DNA from: Acidimicrobiia bacterium
Lineage (GTDB): Bacteria > Actinomycetota > Acidimicrobiia > Spongiisociales > Spongiisociaceae
Reading direction: 5' to 3'
Assembly (NCBI GenBank): GCA_041576165.1
Contig: JBFGLM010000005.1
Span: 74,581-138,580 of the forward strand
DNA: 64,000 nt
Positions 26,539-40,104 of this stretch are shown here, one piece after another. A program made the translations under genes and the position numbers. Under the pieces are notes generated by a model that saw nothing but the letters and a program-made list of their open reading frames with translations, made no database searches and was not told the origin of the DNA. Numbering within the stretch: the stretch's first letter is position 1; the number at the start of each line of letters is the position of its first letter.

Positions 26539-28146
26539 TCAGGCCCGCTCGCGCAGCTCTACCCGCCGGATCTTGCCGGAGATCGTTTTCGGCAACTCGT
26601 CGACGAACTCGATCTCCCGTGGGTATTTGTAAGGTGCCGTGATCGACTTCACGTGGTCCTGAATGTCGGCGCGCAGCGCGTCAGAACCAGTGTGGCCCGG
26701 CGCCAGGATCACATAGGCCTTGACGATATGGCCGCGCTCAGGGTCGGGTTTGCCGACCACCGCCGCCTCGGCCACCGCCGGGTGTTCGATGAGCGCCGAC
26801 TCGACCTCGAAGGGACCGATCCGGTACGCAGCGGACAGGATCACGTCATCGGCGCGGCCCACGAACCAGAAGTAGCCGTCCTCGTCCCGATACGCGCGGT
26901 CCCCGGTGTAGTACCAGCCGTGGCGGAACACCTCGGCGTTGCGTTCCTCGTCCTGCCAGTATCCGCGGAACAGCCCGACCGGCCACGGCTCGGTGCGAAC
27001 GGCGATGTGACCCTCCACTCCATCGGGGCAGATCGCGCCGTCGTCGTCCACGATATCGACGTCCATGCCTGGGGCCGGTCGCCCCATAGAGCCGGGCTTG
27101 ACCTCGAGTGCCGGATAGTTGGCAACCAAACACACCGATTCCGTCTGCCCGTAGCCGTCGTACGGGACAGTGCCGGTGGCGGCATGCCACGTTTCGATCA
27201 CTTCCGGGTTGAGCGGCTCACCGGCGCTGGTGCAGTGGCGCAGGGTCGACCAGTTGAAGGAGCTCAGATCCATCTGGGCGAATGCGCGATACAAAGTGGG
27301 AGGGGCACAGAACGAGGTGACCCCCAATTCGCCGATCAAGTGAAGCATCCGTTCGAAATCGGGTTTGCCCACGATGTCCCACATGACAACCGTCGCTCCC
27401 ATGATCCACTGGCCGAACAGCTTGCCCCACGCGGCCTTGGCCCAACCGGTGTCCGAGACCGTCCAATGGATGTCGTTGGGCCCCAGGTCGTGCCAGAAGC
27501 GGGCGGTGATCTCATGGCCCAGCGCGTAGGAGCCGGCATGCTGAACCATCTTCGGCCCGGCTGTTGTGCCCGATGTGAAGTACAGGAGCAGCGGGTCGCC
27601 GGCTCGGGTCGGCTCCACCGGCGCCGGGCCGGCGCCGACGCCGTCGAGTTCCGATCCGAGTGAGCGCCAGCCGGGCTGGTTGGCTCCCACCACGAACCGT
27701 GCCGTGAGTGATGGACAGTCGTCAGCTACCTGCGCCAGTCGGGCCGCGCCCGTCGCGTCGCACACGGCGGCGGTCGCGCCGGCCCGGTTGATGCGGTATT
27801 GCTGATCTTTGGGCATCAGCTGGGTGGTGCCGGGCATCGGCACGGCCCCTATCTGAAAGCAGCCCAGCAGAACGGCATACCACTCGACAATCCTGGGAAG
27901 CTGCACGAACACCCGATCCCCCGCACCAATGCCGCAGCCACGGAGCAGGTGGGCGGTGCGATGAGCCAGGTCGGATAGGTCGGCATATGTATACCGGTTG
28001 ATCGTCTCGCCGTCGGCTTCGACGCCGATCAACGCTACCTCATCGGGCCCTTCGGAGGCCCGGCGGTGCATGACGTCGCCGGTGAAGTTGTAGTACTCCG
28101 GCACCTCGACCCCAAACTCGGCCCGAGTTTCCTCATAGCTGGTCAT
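26539..28146 (-). CDS. Medium-chain acyl-CoA synthetase (ACSM-like)
   Basis: YFTSGTTAGPK, SDTGWAK, AGEPLN, YGQTE, TGDRA, GRADD, YKYPR, PKTISGKI. Confidence 0.92.
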   Translation of the reverse strand: MTSYEETRAEFGVEVPEYYNFTGDVMHRRASEGPDEVALIGVEADGETINRYTYADLSDLAHRTAHLLRGCGIGAGDRVFVQLPRIVEWYAVLLGCFQIGAVPMPGTTQLMPKDQQYRINRAGATAAVCDATGAARLAQVADDCPSLTARFVVGANQPGWRSLGSELDGVGAGPAPVEPTRAGDPLLLYFTSGTTAGPKMVQHAGSYALGHEITARFWHDLGPNDIHWTVSDTGWAKAAWGKLFGQWIMGATVVMWDIVGKPDFERMLHLIGELGVTSFCAPPTLYRAFAQMDLSSFNWSTLRHCTSAGEPLNPEVIETWHAATGTVPYDGYGQTESVCLVANYPALEVKPGSMGRPAPGMDVDIVDDDGAICPDGVEGHIAVRTEPWPVGLFRGYWQDEERNAEVFRHGWYYTGDRAYRDEDGYFWFVGRADDVILSAAYRIGPFEVESALIEHPAVAEAAVVGKPDPERGHIVKAYVILAPGHTGSDALRADIQDHVKSITAPYKYPREIEFVDELPKTISGKIRRVELRERA

Positions 28147-28327
28147 GTTCGGCAAAGTGGTCACCTCCCGGCACGCAGGGTACCGATCGTGCCCAGGGGC
28201 AGGCCGGCTGCGGCGCCCGGTTTGCGGCCGCGTTCCGATAATCGCCGCCGGGGACAAGGTCCGTCTTTGCTACTTTGACGGGACAGTCCCGGTCCAACGG
28301 GAGACCCGGCGCACAGGAGACTTGCGG

Positions 28328-30922
28328 GTGAAAGGCGGTGTGGAGACTCGTCTGGTCTACACCCTCAGCGTTGATCTGATCGAGTCAACGCTCGAGGGCA
28401 TCGCCATGACTCAGCGCGAACTGGACCGCTTCAATCGAGCGCTGGTGGCGCAGATCGAACCGCACCTCGACGCGCTGGGGTTCGAAGATCTACTCGCGAA
28501 GTTCACCGGAGACGGCTGGCTGCTCATGAGCCCGGAGCTGCACGACGCCGAACGCCTGTGCGCACTGGCTGCCATCATGAAGATCAGCTTTCATCGTGAC
28601 ATCGAGGAACGAACCGGACTGTCGCGGTCCCGGATCCCCGATTTGCGCATGGCGCTGTGCAGCGGCCGTGACATCCGCATTCACCTGTGGCAGGGCTCCT
28701 TTGACTGGGTGGGCGATAGTGCCCGGCGGGCCGCCCGCAGCGCTCAGTTTGCCTATCCGAACGAGGTGCTGATCGATGCTTCGGTCAATTCCCTCGTCAT
28801 GCGCGACTTCGTGACCACCCAGATCGATCCGGGCGTGCGGCCTACTGCGCCCAAACGACTCGAGGAAGACATTCCGCTGTGGGCGCTGGGCGAGCTGCGG
28901 ATCGAGGCGGCCGAGGACTGGGAAACCGCCGCGGCCTACGTGTACGCGCTCGGACAGGTGGGACGAACCGAAGACGCGGCCGCCGCCTCTTTACGCGCTG
29001 CGGACCGGCTGGAGTCCGAAGGCCTGCTCACCAACCCGGAGCCGGGTTCCACGATCGGGCGCTGGAACCGGCTGATCAGCACCGCTCCGACCTACGAGGC
29101 GGTACTCGACCTGTGGAGACGGCTGGAAGAGTGCGGCGCCCGTCCCAACCTCGTCACCCTCAACACGCTGATCGAACGTTCCCCGTCCCATGACGAAATC
29201 GAGCGATGGACGGACACGCTGACTGAACGCGGGATCCGCCTCGACGCAACGACCTATCGATTGATGATCGGACGGGCGCCGGACTTCGACGCCGCGCTGA
29301 AGGTCTTGTCCGAGATGGATTCGGCCGGGGTTGAGCCCGATGCGGAGATCCTCGAAGCGCTGGTTGTCCGGGCTCCGACCTACCGTGCCGCGGTCCGGCT
29401 CGTACGCATGATGCTCACCCGCGACGTGCGACCAACCGTCGAGATCTTCCGCCGGCTCGTCGCCAAGGCCCCCGGCTACGACGTGGCGATCGGGGTGCTG
29501 GACCTGATGGACCAGTGGCGGGTGGCGCCGGATGTTTCGATATTCAACCGACTCGTGCAGCGGGCTCCCTCCTACGACGATGCCGTGTCGTGGCTGGACA
29601 CGATGGCCGGCCGCAGTGTCATGCCCGACATCACCACCTTCAACACGCTCATTGCGCGGGCCGGGCGCTACGGCGCTGCGGTCGGCTGGCTGGACGACAT
29701 GGAGGCGCGGGGGGTGCGCCCGGATGTCTCGACCTTCAACGTCTTGGTCTCCCGCGCCCCCGACTACGAAGTGGCGGTGGCGCTGCTGCGGCGCATGCCC
29801 GAGCGCGGAGTCCGCCCCAACTCGGAAACGTACAAGACGCTGATCGGTCACGCTCCCCACTACGGGGCCGCAGTGGGCTGGCTCGACGAGATGCGCACGG
29901 AAGGCATCCGCCCCAACAATGAGGTCTTCAAAGCCCTCATCGAAAAGGCACCCGATTACGACAGCGCCGTCCGGTGGCTCAACGACATGGGGCAGGCGGG
30001 AGTGGCTCCCAACACCGAGACGTACCGCACGCTCATGTCCAAGGCTCCGGATCTCCTCGAAGCGCTGAACCTGCTGGACAACATGGCTGAGAACGGGGTG
30101 CAGGCCACGTCTGAGACGTTCAAGACCTTGGTTGGTTGCACGGGGTCAAGCGACGAGGCATTGGATGTGATCGCCAGGATGCCGGCGGCGGGTGTGAGAG
30201 CCACAGCCGAGATCTACCAGCCCCTCATAGCCGGGGCCGGATCGCTGCAAGAGGCGCGAGCCTGGCTGGATCACATGTATGCCAGCGGGGTGGAGCCCAC
30301 GACGGAAACGCTGACCGCCGTTTTGCGGAAATCCTCGACGTACGACGAGGCGGAGGTCCTGCTCGACACGATGCGAACGAGTATCGAGCCCAACGAGGGC
30401 GCATACCGGGTGCTGGTCGAGTTGTCGCCGGACATGCTGACTGCGCAGGGGTGGGTGGAGGAGATGAGGGAAGAGGGCATGCGGCCCAGCGCCGCGATTC
30501 TCGAAGCGCTTCTGGGCAAGGATCCAGGAGACATCTCGGCCCAGGCGCTGCTGGATTGGTATCTCAGTCTCGACTATCACCCTGCCGGTCCTATGGCTGC
30601 TGCGATCGACTCCTATGTCGAGCGTGGCTCGGTCCAGGATGCGCTGCGGCTCACGCTCGACTATCCGCACCTGGAGGCCGCCCGGCAGGTGTTCGCCGAT
30701 CACGGGGATGACGCGCTGGTGTACTTCAATGATGTGGTCAGCCGTGAACCGGGACACCCGAACGGTCGCTATGCCATGGGGCTGGCGCTGATCGAGGCGG
30801 GCAAGCCCCACGAAGCGCTGTCCCATCTCGAGGTCGCCATGGAACTCGCCCGGCCCGGGCCTCGGGTGGCGGCGCTCGACGAGATCATCCGCTCCATCCG
30901 CAGTCAGCTCGAAACACCGTGA
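28328..30922 (+). CDS. Class III nucleotidyl-cyclase-like domain + 15 PPR-like repeats + TPR
   Basis: AGGAGA RBS then GTG 28328 (alternative 28340). Cyclase motifs SVDLIEST, KFTGDG, LRMALCSG, DWVGDSARRAAR, PNEVLID; repeats such as VSTFNVLVSRAPDYEVAVALLRRMPERGVRPN; C-terminal TPR-like RYAMGLALIEAGKPHEALSHLEVA. Confidence 0.85.
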   Translation: MKGGVETRLVYTLSVDLIESTLEGIAMTQRELDRFNRALVAQIEPHLDALGFEDLLAKFTGDGWLLMSPELHDAERLCALAAIMKISFHRDIEERTGLSRSRIPDLRMALCSGRDIRIHLWQGSFDWVGDSARRAARSAQFAYPNEVLIDASVNSLVMRDFVTTQIDPGVRPTAPKRLEEDIPLWALGELRIEAAEDWETAAAYVYALGQVGRTEDAAAASLRAADRLESEGLLTNPEPGSTIGRWNRLISTAPTYEAVLDLWRRLEECGARPNLVTLNTLIERSPSHDEIERWTDTLTERGIRLDATTYRLMIGRAPDFDAALKVLSEMDSAGVEPDAEILEALVVRAPTYRAAVRLVRMMLTRDVRPTVEIFRRLVAKAPGYDVAIGVLDLMDQWRVAPDVSIFNRLVQRAPSYDDAVSWLDTMAGRSVMPDITTFNTLIARAGRYGAAVGWLDDMEARGVRPDVSTFNVLVSRAPDYEVAVALLRRMPERGVRPNSETYKTLIGHAPHYGAAVGWLDEMRTEGIRPNNEVFKALIEKAPDYDSAVRWLNDMGQAGVAPNTETYRTLMSKAPDLLEALNLLDNMAENGVQATSETFKTLVGCTGSSDEALDVIARMPAAGVRATAEIYQPLIAGAGSLQEARAWLDHMYASGVEPTTETLTAVLRKSSTYDEAEVLLDTMRTSIEPNEGAYRVLVELSPDMLTAQGWVEEMREEGMRPSAAILEALLGKDPGDISAQALLDWYLSLDYHPAGPMAAAIDSYVERGSVQDALRLTLDYPHLEAARQVFADHGDDALVYFNDVVSREPGHPNGRYAMGLALIEAGKPHEALSHLEVAMELARPGPRVAALDEIIRSIRSQLETP
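29054..30490 (+). repeat. Array of 15 PPR-like protein repeats (14 x 32 aa, 1 x 31 aa; 96-nt period)
   Basis: Hand alignment: each unit has xxT(F/Y)xxL(I/V)xxAPxYxxAxxxLxxMxxxGVxP(D/N/T), which matches the PPR consensus minus three residues at the helix A-B turn. Confidence 0.85.
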
Positions 30923-30993
30923 TGGCGGCACCCGGCCGGGACCGATCCCCCGACCTGGCAGAACCCTCGGCGGGCGCGGAGGGTGAGCACGGC

Positions 30994-31872
30994 ATGAGGG
31001 TGGGGGTCCAGGTGCCTGAGGTCGAACGCTTCGTCCCGTGGTCCGAGTACGCGCACATCGCACACGCAGCCGAGCGGGGCGGCCTGGATTCGCTGTGGGT
31101 GGGAGACCATTTGCTCTACGACTTGCCGGACGGCACGACTCGGGGGCCGTGGGAGTGCTGGACGCTGCTCGCCGGCCTGGCGGCGGTGACGCAACGGGTC
31201 ACGCTGGCCCCGCTGGTGGCCTCCACAAGCTTCCACGCACCCGCCATGCTGGCCAAGCTCGCTAGCACCGTCGACGCGATCTCCGGCGGGCGGCTCGTCT
31301 TGGGCCTCGGAGCGGGATGGAACGAGCGGGAGTACCAGGCGTACGGTTTCCCGTTTGACCGCCGGGTCAGTCGCTTCGAGGAGGCGTTCATGATCATCCA
31401 CACCCTCGTGCGGGAGGGTCGAATCGATTTCGAGGGGGAGTTCTACAGGTTGCAGAACATGGTCCTGGACCCTCCCGCTCGGGCGGACATGCCAATCCTC
31501 GTGGGGTCGACGGGTCCCCGCATGCTCGCCATCACCGCCCCGTTCATGGATATGTGGAACACGTGGTACGCCGACTTCAACAACGATCCTGCGCGGTTGG
31601 GGGAACGCCTCGCCCTGGTGGACGAAGCCGCCATCGCGGCCGGTCGAGACCCGGCCGAGATCGAACGCACCGCGGCATTGTTGTTGCAGCTGGGTGACGC
31701 CCCGACTCGCCGGAACAGTCAGAACCCCATCACGGATCTGGACCGGCTGCCGGCAGCGCTCGACGCCCTGGCGGAGGCGGGGATTTCACACGCCCAGCTG
31801 GTGCTCGACCCGATCACGGCCGAGACTGTTGCCACTGCCGCCCAACTCGTCGAGGCGTGGCGTTCCGGTTGA
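30994..31872 (+). CDS. LLM-class flavin/F420-dependent oxidoreductase
   Basis: DSLWVGDH, LAKLASTVDAISGGRLVLGLGAGW; alternative start GTG 30919 overlaps the PPR gene stop. Confidence 0.88.
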   Translation: MRVGVQVPEVERFVPWSEYAHIAHAAERGGLDSLWVGDHLLYDLPDGTTRGPWECWTLLAGLAAVTQRVTLAPLVASTSFHAPAMLAKLASTVDAISGGRLVLGLGAGWNEREYQAYGFPFDRRVSRFEEAFMIIHTLVREGRIDFEGEFYRLQNMVLDPPARADMPILVGSTGPRMLAITAPFMDMWNTWYADFNNDPARLGERLALVDEAAIAAGRDPAEIERTAALLLQLGDAPTRRNSQNPITDLDRLPAALDALAEAGISHAQLVLDPITAETVATAAQLVEAWRSG

Positions 31873-31928
31873 ACTCCCGGTCCGGCCCGCTGACGCCCGT
31901 GTCGTGCCCACCCGCTAGCGTCCTCGCC

Positions 31929-32825
31929 GTGGAGAAGAGCCGCACATTGCTGCCGCATCGCCCGCTGGACCTACGTCGCACGTTTCACGTGACTGGTCTG
32001 AAGGGCCCGAACCAGCGCGTGGCCGATGGGGGGCTGTGGCGGGCCAGCCGCACCCCGGAAGGTCCGGGCACGATCCGGCTTTCGATAACGGCGGCCGGCG
32101 AGCTGGAAGCCACTGCGTGGGGACGGGGCAGTGAATGGCTACTCGAGCGGCTGCCCGCCATCGTCGGCGAAACCGACGATCTGGCCGGGTTCCGGGCACG
32201 TGACGACGTTGTGCGCGGCCTTCTTCGGCAAGCCCGGGGGCTGCGGCTCCCGGCTGTCGGCGCCATGGTCGAGGTGCTGATCCCGATCATCCTCGCGCAG
32301 AAGGTCACCGGGGTTGCGGCCGGTCGCAGTTACCGCAGGCTGATGGCCCGCTTCGGTGAGTCGGCACCTGGGCCGGCCGGGCTGCGTCTCTCCCCGGACC
32401 CAGCGGTGCTCGGCGCCCTGCCCTACTACGACCTGCACCCCATGGGGATCGAAAAACGGAAGGCAGACGTGATCGGCCGGGTGTGCCGGGAGGCTGTCAG
32501 GCTGCAGGCTGCGGTGAACATGGATCGGACCACGGCGTACGCGGCGCTGCAGGCCATCCGTGGAATCGGCCCCTGGTCGTCCGCGCGCGCGATGATGGTC
32601 GTGGCGGGTGACCCGGACGCAGTGCCGGTCGGTGATTACCACATTCCCAACTCCGTCACATGGGCGCTGGCCAACGAACCGCGGGGGACCGACGAGCGGA
32701 TGCTCGAGTTGCTCGAACCATATGCCGGGCAACGAGGCAGGGTGGTCAGGATGATCGAGGCCTACGCCGGACAGGCGCCGGCATACGGTCCGAAGCTGGC
32801 GCCCCGGGCGTTCGGGACGCAGTAG
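31929..32825 (+). CDS. HhH-GPD DNA glycosylase (AlkA / 3-methyladenine glycosylase II family)
   Basis: ILAQKV, HhH IRGIGPWS, GDPDAVPVGDYH, LLEPYAGQR. Confidence 0.85.
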   Translation: MEKSRTLLPHRPLDLRRTFHVTGLKGPNQRVADGGLWRASRTPEGPGTIRLSITAAGELEATAWGRGSEWLLERLPAIVGETDDLAGFRARDDVVRGLLRQARGLRLPAVGAMVEVLIPIILAQKVTGVAAGRSYRRLMARFGESAPGPAGLRLSPDPAVLGALPYYDLHPMGIEKRKADVIGRVCREAVRLQAAVNMDRTTAYAALQAIRGIGPWSSARAMMVVAGDPDAVPVGDYHIPNSVTWALANEPRGTDERMLELLEPYAGQRGRVVRMIEAYAGQAPAYGPKLAPRAFGTQ

Positions 32826-32848
32826 CAGGAGCCGGCGGCCGGCGGCTC

Positions 32849-33844
32849 TCAGCCGGCGTCTGCAGCAGCCTTGCGCAGTTCCGGTAAAACCTCGACTTCC
32901 ATCATGTTCATCAGCTCGTCGACCCGGGTGGTGGCTACCTGGATCGAGATGTAGTCGGCGCCGATCTCGTTCACCAACGGCAGGTAGGCGTCGATGAGGC
33001 CCGCCACGTCCCCGACGATGGTGTAGCGGTCCAGTATGTCGGAGCGTTCCATCTCATCGGCCCGCTGGCGCAGCACCATCGGGTCGACCGCTTCCAGCCG
33101 GCCCGGCGCCCGTAGTCCCCGCATCGAGCCGAGGGCCCGCCAGGCATCATCGGCGTCGGCCGCGAACACCGTCCAGCGGGTGGCCAGAATCCGGCCCGCG
33201 TTGCCGTGCTTCTCGGATGACTCCCGAAAAGGTCCAATCACCCGCTCGATGGTCTCCGACGGGTTTTTCACCGACGTGATCAGACCGTCCGCCCGCCGGC
33301 CGGCGAAAGTTGCCGACTGGGGACCCCCGGCTGCCATCAGGATCGGCAGCTTCTCGGTCAGCGGAGGACTGTACAGCTGGGCCTTGTCGGTGGTGTACCA
33401 GTCACCTGCGAAATCGAGCTTCTCTCCGGCGAGGAGGCGATGCATGATCTCGAGGGCCTCGCGCATCCTGCCGATGCGTTCCTTGTAGTCGCCGAACTCG
33501 AATCCGAGCGGGCCCTCGTTGATGTTCTCGCCGGTACCCACTCCCAGGATGAAACGCCCGCCGCTGAGCCGGTCGACCGTGGCGGCCGCCTGGGCGATGA
33601 GCGCAGGGTGATAGTGATACAGCGGGCACGTGACCGACGTCGCAAGTTCCAGGTCGGTCCGCGCGGCGACGGAACCCAGCCAGCTCCACACGAAGCCTGA
33701 TGCCGACTCATCATCGACCCAGGGGTGGAAATGATCCGAACCCAGCACCAGGTCGAACCCTGCCTCCTCAGCCCGAACCGCCTGGTCGACCAGGACCTCC
33801 GGTTGGAAGGATTCATGCGAACAGAGCCAGCCGAACTTCACCAT
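32849..33844 (-). CDS. F420-dependent LLM oxidoreductase (Fgd-like family)
   Basis: SHESFQP, SDHFHPW, TSVTCP..YHPALIAQAAAT, GVGTGENINE. Confidence 0.85.
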   Translation of the reverse strand: MVKFGWLCSHESFQPEVLVDQAVRAEEAGFDLVLGSDHFHPWVDDESASGFVWSWLGSVAARTDLELATSVTCPLYHYHPALIAQAAATVDRLSGGRFILGVGTGENINEGPLGFEFGDYKERIGRMREALEIMHRLLAGEKLDFAGDWYTTDKAQLYSPPLTEKLPILMAAGGPQSATFAGRRADGLITSVKNPSETIERVIGPFRESSEKHGNAGRILATRWTVFAADADDAWRALGSMRGLRAPGRLEAVDPMVLRQRADEMERSDILDRYTIVGDVAGLIDAYLPLVNEIGADYISIQVATTRVDELMNMMEVEVLPELRKAAADAG

Positions 33845-33925: not shown

Positions 33926-34927
33926 TCAGCCCCCTGCCAGTTCCCAAACGTGATGGGCGATGGCGTCAGCGGTGGGCCGGCCATTCTCGGCCATGTCGAC
34001 AATCGAGAAATGTCCGACCCCATCGAGCTCACGGTATTTCACGGAGTAGCCGCCGGAGTCGAGTGCGGCCGCGAACTGGACTGAGAACTCCGGGTCCACA
34101 ACCGGGTCGCGCCCCCCGTGCAGCATCAGCACGGACACGTCGGGATTCCGTCCCAGGTACGTGTACGGATTGCCCGTTGCCCACGCCTCCGGGATCTCGG
34201 TACGCAACCCTCCGAATTGGAGCGCAAGGAACGGGAATTGGTCTGAATCGTACGGTCCCGAGATGCCCACGAAGCCGGCGACTGGAGAGGGCTCCTCGAT
34301 GCATTCAGCACTGAATTCCTCAGGGGCGAGCGCTACCACCGCCCCGATGTGGGCGCCGGCCGAGAATCCAACAAGGGTCGTGGGCGGACCGCCCCCGTAG
34401 TCGGCGGAACGGGTCTCGGCGAAAGCGAGGGCACAGGCCACCTCTTGGAACATCTGCGGAAAGGCGCCATCCCGCTCCAGGGGCCGGTACTCGACGTTGA
34501 ATACCACCACCCCGTGACGGGCCAGCGTACGGGCCAGACCGGCCAGATCCTCCTTACGGCCCGAAACCCAGCCGCCCCCGTGGATCGTGATCGCCACCGG
34601 CCAGGGCCCCGGATCCGCCGGGAAGAACACGTCCGCCGGCAGACCCCCGGGGACCGCCACATCGTGGTCCTCCCGGATCGCGAGGTCGTCGGGAGTGTGA
34701 CGCGGAATGGGTGCGGTCGTGGGCGGGGCGGGAGCCCGGGTGATCGAGGTGGTCGCGTTGCCGGCGGGCGCGAAGGTGGCGACCGTCGAACTCGCCGTGC
34801 TCGCAGGCGGAAACCTGTCGACCGCCGGGCTCTCGCCTGCTGCTGCGTCCCCATCTGCGGCCGGCGCAGTTTCGCAGGCTGCCAGCAGCGTCACCAGAAT
34901 CACGAGACCCGTCAGCGCGCGTTTCAT
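33926..34927 (-). CDS. Lipoprotein esterase/lipase (alpha/beta hydrolase)
   Basis: Lipobox LAAC; HGGGW, GFSAG, HGGRDPVV, GVGH. Confidence 0.85.
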   Translation of the reverse strand: MKRALTGLVILVTLLAACETAPAADGDAAAGESPAVDRFPPASTASSTVATFAPAGNATTSITRAPAPPTTAPIPRHTPDDLAIREDHDVAVPGGLPADVFFPADPGPWPVAITIHGGGWVSGRKEDLAGLARTLARHGVVVFNVEYRPLERDGAFPQMFQEVACALAFAETRSADYGGGPPTTLVGFSAGAHIGAVVALAPEEFSAECIEEPSPVAGFVGISGPYDSDQFPFLALQFGGLRTEIPEAWATGNPYTYLGRNPDVSVLMLHGGRDPVVDPEFSVQFAAALDSGGYSVKYRELDGVGHFSIVDMAENGRPTADAIAHHVWELAGG

Positions 34928-35781
34928 GCGCCCGACAACCGCTCCAGCAGGAGGTGCGTGGCCCAGTTGGCGCCCTCCCCCCATTCGGCCACGACGACCC
35001 GCACCTGATCTTCGTCGAGGAGGTCATCTTGCTCCGCGACATACCGGCTGATGGCCTTGCGGACGCCGAGATCGCCGGCCGCAATCACATGACCGCGACC
35101 CAGACACCGGGCCAGGAGCCAGTCGGCGCTCCAGCGACCGATACCTCGAATCGCGGTGACGTGGTCCATCACGGCTGCATCGCTCATGTTTTCCAACCCG
35201 GCGAGGTGGCCGTCCGCCGCCGCCTGGGCGAGGCCGACGATGTACTCGGCCTTGCGCATGGTGAACTGCATGTCTCGCAGCGCGGCCGGGTCGACCGGTG
35301 CCAGCATCTCGGGGGACGGGAACCGCCAGACCGTCTGCCCGTCGATGTGATGCGCCGAACCGAATCGTCCGACGAGGCGCCGTCGAGTGGTAGTCGCCCA
35401 CGTCAGATTCACCTGTTGAGCCGTGATCGCGGTGACCAGCGCTTCGAAGGGGTCGGCGACCAGCGGAGGTCGGTAACCGGCGAGGCGCCGTGACTGCTCG
35501 GCCACCGGCGGCACGGCCAGTGCAGCCGGAGTGGGCCGGGGAAGCGCTTCGGCTAGGCGGTGCGACAGATCGGCATTGGCCCGGCCCGGGTCTCCCAATA
35601 CGTGCAGCTCGACCGCGTACGCGTCGAGCTGGCGTGCCCGGTAGACGGTGCCATCGGGTGTGACCCGGTGGTAGCACCCGTCTGTCACCGTGTTGACCGG
35701 ATCGTCCCCCCACCGGGTGTATCGGGCGATACACGCTCGGAGATCGAGCGGCCGGTCGGTTATCCAGGTGGTGCGCTCCAT
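34924..35781 (-). CDS. alkA: DNA-3-methyladenine glycosylase II (AlkA family)
   Basis: DPFEALVTAITAQQV, FPSPE, RKAEYI, IRGIGRWSA, AGDLGVRKA. Confidence 0.85.
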   Translation of the reverse strand: MERTTWITDRPLDLRACIARYTRWGDDPVNTVTDGCYHRVTPDGTVYRARQLDAYAVELHVLGDPGRANADLSHRLAEALPRPTPAALAVPPVAEQSRRLAGYRPPLVADPFEALVTAITAQQVNLTWATTTRRRLVGRFGSAHHIDGQTVWRFPSPEMLAPVDPAALRDMQFTMRKAEYIVGLAQAAADGHLAGLENMSDAAVMDHVTAIRGIGRWSADWLLARCLGRGHVIAAGDLGVRKAISRYVAEQDDLLDEDQVRVVVAEWGEGANWATHLLLERLSGA

Positions 35782-35886
35782 GGCCGCGGAGAGTGTATGC
35801 GGCCCGTGGACGTAGCCGGATCGCCCCCGGTGCCGGGCCGTGGGCCGTTTCAAGATTTCGGCCTAACCCGTCGATAACCACTGGGA

Positions 35887-37572: not shown

Positions 37573-40104
37573 ATGACCGCAGAGGCGATTGCGTCTGAGC
37601 CGAAACGGCGGAGGTTGTCCGGGGTCGGACGCGTTTGGGTTCTCACTGCGGTAGCCGCCCTAGCGGCGGTCGGCCTGTCTGCACTGATCTGGCGGATGCA
37701 TTCGTTCGCACCTCCGATCCGGATCCCCATGGTCGTCTTCGGGGTGCTGTTCTACGTCGCCGAGATCACCGTGGTGCACGTCCGGTTCCGACGAGACGCG
37801 CACTCGTTTTCAATGAGCGAGGTTCCGCTGGTTCTGTCACTCTTCTTCCTCGCTCCGGGCCAGATCATCACGGCCCAGTTTCTCGGAACCACTCTGGCAT
37901 TGGCCGTCAACCGCCGTCAGAGATCGGTCAAGCTGGCGTTCAATGCGTCCCAACTGACGCTGCAGGCTGCCGTCTTCATCGGCATCTTCATGGCTATCAC
38001 CACCGGTGCGGACCCGCTCGGCCCGATGGGTTGGCTGGGGGTGGCGGCAGGGATCGGGGCCACTGTTGTCGTGTCGAACACCATGATCGGTGCGGCGATC
38101 CGTATGTCGGGTGGGACGCTGTCGACGGACGATCGCAACACGATGTACCTCCTCAGCCTCGGCGCGGCGGTCCTCAACGCGGCATTGGCACTGATCGCCG
38201 CCACGATCCTGTGGGCCCGTCCGAGCAGCGCCTGGATTGCGCTCATCCCATTCGCCGTATTGTTCTTCGCGTACCGGGCCTATCTGGCGCAACGGCTCGA
38301 TCGCGACCGGCTGCACGCGCTGTACGAAATCAGCGGTGAGCTTCACCGCCTCCCCCGCATTGACGACGCCCTGGCCGCGGCCGCCGATCGGGCGCGGTCC
38401 ATGTTCGATGCCGAGAGCGCCGCAGTCTTGCTCTACCCGGAGGGTGAGCAGGGTCCGGGTTTGCGCACCGAAGCCCTGGTCGACGCCCCCACCACGGCGA
38501 TGCAGCCGGTCGAGGACATGGATGCGGATGTTGCCGAGTTCGTCCAGCGAGGTGGTGGTCCATGGCTGGCAACCGACGAAAACGATCGAGGGATCGCAAT
38601 GATCGTCCCGGTACCGGGATCCGATTCAGGGTTCGGGGCGATGGCGGTGCGCAGCCCGTTGAGCGACATCGGCAGTTTCGGCCCTCGTGATCTTGCGCTG
38701 CTGGAAACTCTGGCCGACCACGTTGGGGTCTCGCTCAAAAACGGTCGCCTGCAGGACTCGCTGGCCCGCCTCACCGAGCTCAAAGATGAGCTACACCAAC
38801 GGGCATTGCACGACAGCTTGACCGGCCTCGCCAACCGTACGTTGTTGTTTCAGGAATTGGAGCGAGTGCTGGGAGCGAGCAGCAATCGGGGCGCCGTGAT
38901 GTTCATCGATCTCGATGATTTCAAGGCCATCAACGATACCCACGGACACGAAACCGGGGATCTCGTCCTGATCGAGGTGGCCGCCCGCCTCCGATCCTCC
39001 TGCCGCCCCCACGACCTCGTCGCCCGGCTCGGCGGGGACGAATTCGCGCTGCTGCTGGAAAACCTCACTTCCCATGACGACGCCATCCGGGTGGCCGAGC
39101 GCATCATCCGGTTGGTGGGCGAGCCGATCGTCACCCAGGGGGGCGCAGTCGAGACGCAGGTCAGCGTCGGGGTGGCGATGACCGATGGCACCGGCGAACC
39201 GGACGAGGTGCTGCGCCGTGCCGACGAAGCCATGTATGCCGCCAAGTTCGACGGTAAAGGCTGCTACCGGCTCCACAGTCCCGGCATGAGCAGCAAACAC
39301 GCGGCGGAACTGGCCACCGTGACCAGCCTGCGCCACGCGATCGACTCGGACGAGCTCGAGCTGTACTACCAGCCGCTGGTCGACTTGAAGACGCGGCAGG
39401 TCCACGGCGTGGAGGCCCTCGTGCGCTGGAACCATCCGACCGAAGGACTGTTGCTACCGGCCGCCTTCGTGCCGGTGGCCGAACGTCGCGGGCTGACCGC
39501 CGCCATGGGTGAGTGGGTGCTGAAGGCGGCCATTGGCCAGATCGCAAGCTGGCAGGCCGAGCACGATACCGTGCCGCTCGTTTCGATCAATCTCTCGGCC
39601 GCCGAGATCTCCGAAGGATTGATACCGATGGTCGATGCTCTGACCCGGGCGAAGGGGGTTGAGCCGTCCAACCTCCAGATCGAGATCACCGAAGGTGTCA
39701 TGATGTCGAGTGACAGTGCGTTCCTGGAGCGGCTCCGCGCCCTCGGCGTCCAGGTCGCTCTCGACGATTTCGGAACCGGGTATTCCTCGCTGGCGTACCT
39801 CGACAGGTTGCCGGTCGACACCATCAAGTTCGATCAATCGTTCATCGCCCGCCTCGACGACGAACGAACGGCCCGGATCCTTCAGCTGATGACCGACTTC
39901 GGTGTGGCCATGGGCTACCGCACCGTGGCCGAGGGGATCGAAACGACCGAACAGCTGGCGGCGCTCACCAAGTTCGGCTGTCAAATGGGCCAGGGCTACC
40001 TGTTGGGCCGGCCGATGCCGGTGGCGGAAGTGGAGCGGCTGATCTTCGGACCGGAGGAACGGCTGGCCGACGTCGTCGTGCTGCGCCCGGCCTCCAACGG
40101 CTGA
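37573..40104 (+). CDS. Membrane sensor-GAF-GGDEF-EAL c-di-GMP enzyme
   Basis: About 7-8 N-terminal TMs, GAF-like segment, RPHDLVARLGGDEF, VEALVRW, IEITE, DDFGTGYSSL, AEGIET, QGY; starts 9 nt after the subtilase stop. Confidence 0.92.
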   Translation: MTAEAIASEPKRRRLSGVGRVWVLTAVAALAAVGLSALIWRMHSFAPPIRIPMVVFGVLFYVAEITVVHVRFRRDAHSFSMSEVPLVLSLFFLAPGQIITAQFLGTTLALAVNRRQRSVKLAFNASQLTLQAAVFIGIFMAITTGADPLGPMGWLGVAAGIGATVVVSNTMIGAAIRMSGGTLSTDDRNTMYLLSLGAAVLNAALALIAATILWARPSSAWIALIPFAVLFFAYRAYLAQRLDRDRLHALYEISGELHRLPRIDDALAAAADRARSMFDAESAAVLLYPEGEQGPGLRTEALVDAPTTAMQPVEDMDADVAEFVQRGGGPWLATDENDRGIAMIVPVPGSDSGFGAMAVRSPLSDIGSFGPRDLALLETLADHVGVSLKNGRLQDSLARLTELKDELHQRALHDSLTGLANRTLLFQELERVLGASSNRGAVMFIDLDDFKAINDTHGHETGDLVLIEVAARLRSSCRPHDLVARLGGDEFALLLENLTSHDDAIRVAERIIRLVGEPIVTQGGAVETQVSVGVAMTDGTGEPDEVLRRADEAMYAAKFDGKGCYRLHSPGMSSKHAAELATVTSLRHAIDSDELELYYQPLVDLKTRQVHGVEALVRWNHPTEGLLLPAAFVPVAERRGLTAAMGEWVLKAAIGQIASWQAEHDTVPLVSINLSAAEISEGLIPMVDALTRAKGVEPSNLQIEITEGVMMSSDSAFLERLRALGVQVALDDFGTGYSSLAYLDRLPVDTIKFDQSFIARLDDERTARILQLMTDFGVAMGYRTVAEGIETTEQLAALTKFGCQMGQGYLLGRPMPVAEVERLIFGPEERLADVVVLRPASNG

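Follow-up and report, generated by a model that had tools for sequence, protein, structure and literature searches.

A 32-residue pentatricopeptide-type repeat array joined to a divergent class III cyclase domain in an Acidimicrobiia bacterium and a rare prokaryotic family

The window analysed here is a stretch of 64,000 nucleotides from an Acidimicrobiia bacterium (assembly GCA_041576165.1, contig JBFGLM010000005.1), and the gene under study lies on its forward strand (Table 1). The gene encodes a three-part protein with an N-terminal class III nucleotidyl-cyclase domain, an array of pentatricopeptide repeat (PPR)-type units of 32 amino acids, and a C-terminal tetratricopeptide repeat (TPR) cap. 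That a PPR-type array of this unit length is present in a cyclase fusion is held with high confidence. An earlier note on this DNA had seen the array, while the cyclase and TPR context and the family across prokaryotes had escaped it.

The open reading frame (ORF) listed for the gene runs from 28145 to 30922 (+) and starts at the ATG at 28145. Its first 61 codons (28145-28327) have no counterpart in homologues, which are 857-888 amino acids long and align only from about residue 62 of the listed ORF, and this segment overlaps the 5' end of a divergent acyl-CoA synthetase gene on the minus strand (26539-28257). Additionally, P0002, a 98%-identical protein, begins with MKGG where the proposed GTG sits. 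Given the point at which the homologues begin to align and the Shine-Dalgarno-like motif upstream of the GTG, the listed start is most likely over-called, leaving a protein of 864 amino acids.

Table 1. Coordinates of the cyclase-PPR gene and its parts within the window.
Feature	Position	Strand	Basis
Whole gene, 864-aa cyclase-PPR32-TPR protein	28328..30922	+	GTG start to TGA stop, as proposed
N-terminal domain, 242 aa	28328..29053	+	AlphaFold model, Foldseek, VIA, motif alignments
15 tandem PPR-type units, 32 aa (unit 14 = 31 aa)	29054..30490	+	Profiles, register, model
Degenerate 16th hairpin (AAILEALLGKDPGD...), opening the conserved C-terminal module	30491..30586	+	Register, model helices, family alignment
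Conserved C-terminal module, 143 aa; motifs W..YL, LDYPHL, H.N..YA.G	30491..30919	+	Family-built hidden Markov model (HMM)
TPR pair within the C-terminal module	30707..30877	+	TPR_19 match
Shine-Dalgarno-like AGGAG, 8 nt 5' of the proposed GTG	28315..28319	+	Read from sequence

Counted from the listed ATG, residue 304 begins at base 29054 and residue 782 ends at base 30490, so that the array takes up residues 243-721 of the 864-residue protein. Cutting the translation every 32 residues from residue 304 yields 13 units in perfect register (304-719), followed by a unit of 31 residues (720-750), a further unit of 32 (751-782) and a degenerate 16th unit. This periodicity is shared by the family: in 89 family proteins, the unit-to-unit spacing is exactly 32 residues in 627 of 678 cases and 31 residues in 30. 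The units of the window protein itself served to build the unit HMM, which makes the spacings circular for the window and not for the other proteins. At the DNA level, Tandem Repeats Finder returned no tandem repeat in the array (0 rows).

Profile searches identify the units as PPRs. The Pfam model PPR_2 matches the protein with E = 2.9e-48 and 162.2 bits (cut-off 30), and the scores of PPR_3 (92 bits, cut-off 25), PPR_long (48.4, cut-off 27), PPR_1 (47.4, cut-off 23.8), PPR (41.8, cut-off 25) and TIGR00756 (92.9, cut-off 20) also exceed their thresholds. A phmmer search of the PDB gave 32 sequences at E <= 0.01, all of them PPR proteins or designed PPR-type solenoids with no TPR or HEAT protein among them, led by dPPR10 (6een, 3e-49) and maize PPR10 (1.7e-37). 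In these alignments each unit has a gap of three residues behind 'TLI', where the designer consensus reads 'DGL', and Asn5 and the last Asp or Asn of the units align with positions 5 and 35 of that consensus. Within residues 304-782 the sole TPR match is to TPR-S, at 22.7 bits and below the cut-off of 27.6. Both the 32-residue unit, in place of the usual 35, and the assignment to PPRs rather than to TPR or HEAT repeats had been put forward in the earlier note, and both are upheld by these comparisons.

The array is predicted to consist of antiparallel helix pairs stacked as a superhelix, with PPR structures as its nearest folds. The AlphaFold model of the whole protein (predicted local distance difference test, pLDDT, 88.3) has two helices in each unit, arranged as helix a of about 10 residues, a turn of 3, helix b of about 13 and a loop of 6. 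In designer PPRs (dPPRs), the helices comprise residues 1-14 and 17-30, with a loop of five residues after them (Shen 2016, PMC4837458). The unit is thus 32 rather than 35 residues long because helix a is shorter by one turn, spanning about 10 residues in the model versus 14 in dPPR; the residues are lost from the C-terminal end of this helix, and the shortened turn between the two helices that had previously been proposed is not borne out. In a Foldseek search with the array, PPR10 (4m59) ranked first with E = 7e-15, and designer PPRs reached template modelling scores, TM(target), of 0.54-0.63. Among the 50 rows, PPR-titled entries occupy ranks 1-3, 6-11, 14-16, 20, 25, 44 and 45, and the remaining rows are chains of plant plastid RNA polymerase, mitoribosomes or a spliceosome, for which the table gives no chain identity. 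VIA comparisons with designer PPRs gave Z scores of 16.8-21.7, the highest for dPPR-U8C2, at a root-mean-square deviation (rmsd) of 7.6 A over 345 residues. Stretches of five repeats (4ozs, 4pjr) superimposed at 3.0-3.1 A over 160-163 residues. In the model, the local fold is that of a PPR, and the superhelix diverges from the RNA-bound form over longer stretches.

The C-terminal module, recognised by the family-built HMM in 35 loci, is of a different repeat type. TPR_19 matches the isolated C-terminal piece at E = 2.7e-8 and 34.4 bits (cut-off 25) and is found in 33 of 36 family members, and a profile of the module matches consensus TPR proteins in the PDB. With PPR models matching the array and TPR models the cap, the profile libraries separate both repeat types in one protein.

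At the other end of the protein, residues ~3-192 (taking the GTG as residue 1) are predicted to adopt the fold of a class III nucleotidyl cyclase, followed by three linker helices. The AlphaFold model of this domain, built from an alignment of 47 sequences, has a pLDDT of 93.9. Foldseek matched it to CyaC, Cya2 and Rv1625c with a probability of 1.00 (E 5e-10 to 8e-10, TM(target) 0.73-0.79), and VIA aligned 166-188 of its residues with class III cyclases at Z ~19 and an rmsd of 2.1-2.8 A. The domain has no match to any Pfam model, and a scan of the whole genome with Guanylate_cyc (PF00211) gave 12 matches in other frames, none at the cyclase-PPR gene.

Six positions of the domain, D16, K58, D62, D126, R133 and R137, can be set against known active sites, with catalytic roles taken from PDB entry titles and from what is known of the class. 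Profile alignments set D16 and D62 opposite the two metal-binding Asp of CyaC and K58 opposite the Lys of that enzyme, while D126 aligns with the Asp made by the substitution C566D, which converts rhodopsin guanylyl cyclase (RhGC) to the use of ATP (6aoa, 5oyh). In the alignments, which cover CyaC, Ma1120 and RhGC, R137 is matched to the catalytic Arg, and R133 to the catalytic (transition-state) Asn in 'GDTVN' and 'GPSVN'. Among the 144 sequences of the family, D16 is kept in 142, K58 in 136, D62 in 144, D126 in 128 (with Glu in nine more), R133 in 143 and R137 in 138. Judging from the model and these alignments, the two metal-binding Asp, the Lys/Asp pair and the Arg of a class III cyclase are all present, and the Lys/Asp pair would make cyclic AMP (cAMP) the most likely product.

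Relatives of the gene were sought by scanning one genome per species, which gave 55 loci in free-living bacteria and archaea. The closest relatives are found in the Acidimicrobiia (54-58% identity, 15 units). Other bacterial carriers include the Dehalococcoidia and other Chloroflexota, Armatimonadota (with about five units), Planctomycetota, Ignavibacteriota, Acidobacteriota, Bacteroidota and Verrucomicrobiota, and archaeal carriers the Methanotrichaceae, Methanophagales, Argoarchaeum and Micrarchaeota (contig L018). Overall, the cyclase domain is nearly always joined to 2-16 units of exactly 32 residues, in no fewer than 10 bacterial phyla and in several archaea. The order of the domains in these loci is that of the window protein, a cyclase domain followed by 2-16 units and the C-terminal module. 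When 1.84 billion representatives were searched with a profile of the cyclase domain, only 207 clusters matched at E <= 1e-3; 69 of these clusters have representatives of at least 400 amino acids, and 56 of the 69 contain two or more units. In the long representatives, 261 of 301 unit spacings are 32 residues and two are 35. In certain members (P0125, P0135, P0130, P0132, P0082 and P0099), the cyclase-like domain is combined with other partners, namely NUDIX, leucine-rich repeats (LRR) with FG-GAP repeats, a kinase-like region or an N-terminal helix-turn-helix, and in P0130 and P0132 the LRR and FG-GAP repeats replace the array. A search for short arrays standing alone gave only two contig-end fragments and one weak plant match.

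The family is rare, small and patchy across bacteria and archaea. The window's own genome has one copy of the gene and is also the only carrier among the 301 genomes sampled from its class. In the phylum of locus L038 (Chthonomonadaceae, Armatimonadota), cyclase matches occur in 6 of 201 sampled genomes and PPR_2 matches in 5 of the 201, all five in frames with a cyclase match. In P0025, a metagenome protein of 887 amino acids, the units are near-identical, with 'TYNTLINKAPDYDAAKAWVDTMRGEGIQPD' repeated, and locus L040:3416-6286 encodes 16 units, nearly all with the pair NN. The near-identity of these units suggests recent amplification in some distant members, and unit number appears to evolve quickly. 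The sole member found in a named cultured strain is L055, which lies on a contig of 3333 bases from strain 10MBP4-2-1 of Portibacter marinus; it has 11 units, all with canonical pairs and Val or Ile at position 2, and keeps all six cyclase positions. The Dehalococcoidia protein of L011/L041 is likewise fully canonical in its pairs.

In eukaryotic PPRs, position 5 and the last position of each unit carry the specificity for bases. The pairs in the 15 window units are, in order, NN, ND, RD, ET, RD, ND, ND, NN, KN, KN, RT, KT, QT, TN and RS, identical at all fifteen units to those listed in the earlier note. Outside the Acidimicrobiia, a survey of 302 ungapped units from 56 proteins found ND in 99, NN in 63, SN in 22, NS in 15, SD in 14, TD in 9 and TN in 7, together 229 of the 302 (76%). 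These seven leading pairs are also the seven leading pairs of land-plant P-type PPRs, given as ND, NN, TD, SD, TN, SN and NS (Yan 2019, PMC6468296). In the same set of units, position 2 is Val in 42%, with Ile and Phe occurring in addition, and position 10, which aligns with Lys13 of dPPR, is Lys or Arg in 74%. In crystals of dPPR with RNA, the base is described as sandwiched by Val2 and the phosphate as held by Lys13 (Shen 2016, PMC4837458).

Within the window clade, variability was compared over 24 orthologues. The excess of variation across units over that across orthologues is greatest at position 5 (2.37 against 0.87 bits). Asn5 is present in 24 of 24 orthologues in units 1, 6 and 8 and in 22 of 24 in unit 7, Lys or Arg in 24 of 24 in units 10-12 and 15 and in 21 of 24 in unit 9, and units 9-12 have Glu2 in every orthologue (24/24). 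In the five-unit Armatimonadota clade, the same test found Asn5 fixed in nearly all units, with three rows that aligned poorly. Tabulated in this way, as the earlier note had advised, position 5 behaves as a specificity position, and six window repeats keep canonical pairs (units 1, 2, 6, 7, 8 and 14), the number it had given. Its suggestion of a partly non-standard code, based on Arg or Lys at position 5, was overstated, as RD and RS are already among the frequent natural pairs of plants and the pair KN is reported to give a smeared band in C binding (Yan 2019, PMC6468296). On sequence grounds, units 9-12 (Glu2, Lys or Arg at position 5, and Asn or Thr last) are a fixed, derived surface of the Acidimicrobiia clade and not a family-wide one, and this surface may have the backbone or a protein as its partner, or no partner at all. 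Taken as a whole, the family looks like a reader of nucleic acid, of which the window protein would be a partly derived member.

The neighbours of the cyclase-PPR gene in the window are housekeeping genes. Just 3' of it, 30919-33841 and 34924-35850 encode two luciferase-like (LLM) oxidoreductase and two HhH-GPD glycosylase-like genes; the GTG of the first LLM gene overlaps the stop of the cyclase-PPR gene (GTGA), and the neighbour is a different one in the relatives L003, L004 and L005. A GAF-GGDEF-EAL protein is encoded at 37573-40101, 7 kb downstream. Together with the 12 Guanylate_cyc matches and five frames in the genome for proteins that bind cyclic nucleotide monophosphates (cNMPs), this protein shows that the organism is rich in nucleotide second-messenger signalling. 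Elsewhere in the window, a 365-aa ORF at 13386-14480 matches a nickel superoxide dismutase domain in residues 236-353 only, and its long N-terminal part is probably an over-called start.

Brought together, these observations point to a PPR-type array that senses a ligand, probably single-stranded nucleic acid, and controls a divergent class III cyclase, a reading that we regard as evenly balanced. The protein would be a stand-alone cytoplasmic signalling enzyme with the array as its sensor. An extended ligand would bind along the inner face formed by helices a; it would most likely be single-stranded RNA, or single-stranded DNA, with position 5 and the last position doing the reading as they do in eukaryotic PPRs. 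An occupied array would alter the dimerisation or conformation of the cyclase domains, and this change would switch synthesis of a cyclic nucleotide on or off, to be read in turn by the cNMP-binding proteins of the cell, for which the five frames in the window's genome are candidates. The parts of this proposal are not equally secure. A role of the array in sensing a ligand on behalf of the cyclase is somewhat favoured, and the nature of that ligand as a nucleic acid is put forward tentatively, at rather less than an even chance. The most far-reaching version is a native prokaryotic PPR lineage with a plant-type code, in which the reading of single-stranded RNA or DNA would be turned directly into a signal of cyclic nucleotide, as an RNA-sequence-gated class III cyclase; this version is unlikely. 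For the fully canonical 11-unit protein of Portibacter marinus (L055), the predicted target would be YGUYAYUGAYG.

A number of observations weigh against this proposal. In the window array, just 6 of 15 units have canonical pairs, 8 of 15 have Glu2 at a place that requires a hydrophobic residue in canonical units, and the RD and RS pairs that it contains bind none of the four bases in designer PPRs (Yan 2019, PMC6468296). Over about ten repeats, the model deviates from RNA-bound dPPR by an rmsd of 5-8 A, and the groove may consequently not suit one nucleotide per unit. In the cyclase domain, PF00211 has no match to the protein at E <= 1, profile-to-PDB sequence matches are marginal (E 0.013-0.4), and Arg stands in for the catalytic Asn in 143 of the 144 family sequences, so that the chemistry may differ from cAMP synthesis. 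The occasional fusion of the cyclase domain to LRR and FG-GAP repeats or to NUDIX instead of an array, together with the predicted PPRs of the bacterial protein Avs5-3 (Pseudomonas), which are described as binders of protein ligands (PMC12931631), indicates that such arrays need not read RNA. Lastly, among 91 flanking ORFs of 23 loci there is no conserved neighbour gene that points to a pathway. The low isoelectric point (4.85) and net charge (-19) of the array were considered as an argument against RNA binding and rejected, since the designer PPR consensus is also net negative and yet binds RNA, so that charge does not discriminate.

The alternative that survives best holds that the array senses a protein, peptide or small ligand in the manner of TPR or LRR domains, the ligand still controlling the cyclase; we consider it somewhat unlikely. 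It would account for the members with LRR and FG-GAP in place of the array (P0130, P0132), for the predicted PPRs of Avs5-3, placed in a domain of repeats described as binding protein ligands (PMC12931631), for the mostly polar or acidic position 2 in the window clade and the Armatimonadota, for the invariant Glu2 and Lys or Arg at position 5 in units 9-12, and for the termination of the array in a true TPR pair. However, the family-wide plant pairs and the equivalents of Val2 and Lys13 are hard to explain without contact to nucleic acid, at least ancestrally, and no partner gene is conserved nearby in the 23 loci.

It is improbable that the array is a mere scaffold for structure or dimerisation, or that the cyclase-like domain is inactive or of other chemistry, with no ligand-gated cNMP signal in either case. 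The Arg in the place of the transition-state Asn and the unmatched Guanylate_cyc model agree with such a reading, as does the range of 2-16 units between lineages, which would be expected of a spacer. Nonetheless, the other five catalytic positions are nearly invariant, which implies that the active site is under selection, and the conservation of position 5 unit by unit among the 24 orthologues is unexpected of a passive spacer.

That a eukaryotic PPR gene, from a plant or an alga, was imported recently and has no native prokaryotic role is very improbable. Bacterial PPR proteins have been ascribed to transfer from eukaryotic hosts (PMC8190603, PMC2824747), and the nearest language-model clusters of the window protein are all eukaryotic PPRs. 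Yet the 55 loci of free-living bacteria and archaea have in common the 32-residue unit, the fusion to a cyclase and the TPR cap, no intermediate with 35-residue units is seen (2 of 301 representative spacings), and the base composition of the gene agrees with that of the surrounding housekeeping genes. In addition, a quick tree with SH-aLRT support values groups the Acidimicrobiia copies (99) and 15 of 16 Armatimonadota copies (95) as clades of their own, with the archaeal copies nested among the Chloroflexota. The last alternative, that the repeat is periodic by chance or is an ordinary array of TPR or HEAT type wrongly labelled as PPR, finds a trace of agreement in the sub-threshold TPR-S match and is refuted, with a negligible residual probability, by PPR models of 42-162 bits that all exceed their cut-offs, by the PDB matches, by Foldseek and by the confinement of TPR models to the cap.

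A role in defence was rejected as the principal reading, with PADLOC reporting 0 families and no partner conserved in the 23 loci. Regarding a Pycsar-type system in particular, there was no PADLOC model match and no conserved neighbour in the same flanking ORFs, and the genes beside it in the window are housekeeping genes; the PycC structure 8jsz matched the cyclase profile weakly (E = 1.2). Defence-like neighbours are scattered around two members, DndB-like, Schlafen/AlbA_2 and HEPN AbiU2 genes at L023:3275-8625 and sacsin-like, SMC-like ATPase and SIR2_2 genes at L053:2645-12248, and some members may have a defence role. Most other members are without such neighbours. Genes of RNA metabolism (RNase R, RRM, RNase Y, YbeY) are also scattered among the neighbours in the 23 loci.

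Compared to P-class PPR proteins and their designed derivatives (PPR10, 4M57/4M59; dPPR, 5I9D-5I9H and 6EEN; cPPR, 4PJR and 5ORM), the array shares the helix-turn-helix superhelix, the unit consensus xxTYNxLI...A..L...M...G..PD, the dominance in the family of Asn, Ser or Thr at position 5 with Asp or Asn last, and the equivalents of Val2 and Lys13. It differs in its shorter unit, its prokaryotic host, its cyclase and TPR cap, the Glu2 and Lys or Arg at position 5 found in half of the units of the window clade, and the modelled superhelix. The N-terminal domain, in turn, has the fold, the two Asp, the Lys/Asp pair and the Arg of bacterial class III cyclases (CyaC, 1WC0; Cya2, 2W01; Rv1625c, 7YZ9; Ma1120, 4WP8) and, like multidomain members of that class, an attached repeat module as its presumed regulator. 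Unlike them, it is too divergent for PF00211, has an invariant Arg for the catalytic Asn and carries a regulator of the PPR type. Mycobacterial cyclases with helical-repeat regulatory modules exist, for example Rv0386.

PPRs have been described as essentially eukaryotic, with bacterial cases as transfers (PMC4029402, 2013; PMC2824747, 2010; PMC8190603, 2021), most of these cases being in host-associated bacteria (PMC8190603). Earlier bacterial examples include proteins of Ralstonia solanacearum, Rhodobacter sphaeroides and Legionella longbeachae (Llo1404 and Llo2643; PMC2824747), and a recent one is the sensor Avs5-3 of Pseudomonas, with predicted PPRs (PMC12931631, 2026). The window family resembles these in matching PPR models in a prokaryote, whereas it is environmental and free-living and is set apart by its unit length and its fixed architecture. 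The Arabidopsis protein AtPPR, termed a 'moonlighting' adenylyl cyclase, is a PPR protein with reported in vitro adenylyl-cyclase activity (PMC12237933); what it has is a short 'AC centre', defined by a motif and lying within a plant PPR protein, with no class III domain and an unrelated architecture. On the combination of a PPR-type array with a class III cyclase, or on a prokaryotic origin of PPRs, searches of the literature gave nothing relevant.

The family thus adds a distinct 32-residue form of PPR, found in free-living bacteria and archaea of many phyla and nearly always in the same three-part protein, which shares the specificity residues of plant PPRs. If the array does not bind RNA, the PPR scaffold would have been reused as a generic sensor. 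If it does, the origin of the PPR code would become testable, and the natural 32-residue unit would offer a shorter scaffold for designer RNA binders. RNA binding would also represent a new input to second-messenger signalling, from nucleic-acid sequence to cNMP, and, should sequence-gated reading prove true, the PPR code would not be a eukaryotic invention.

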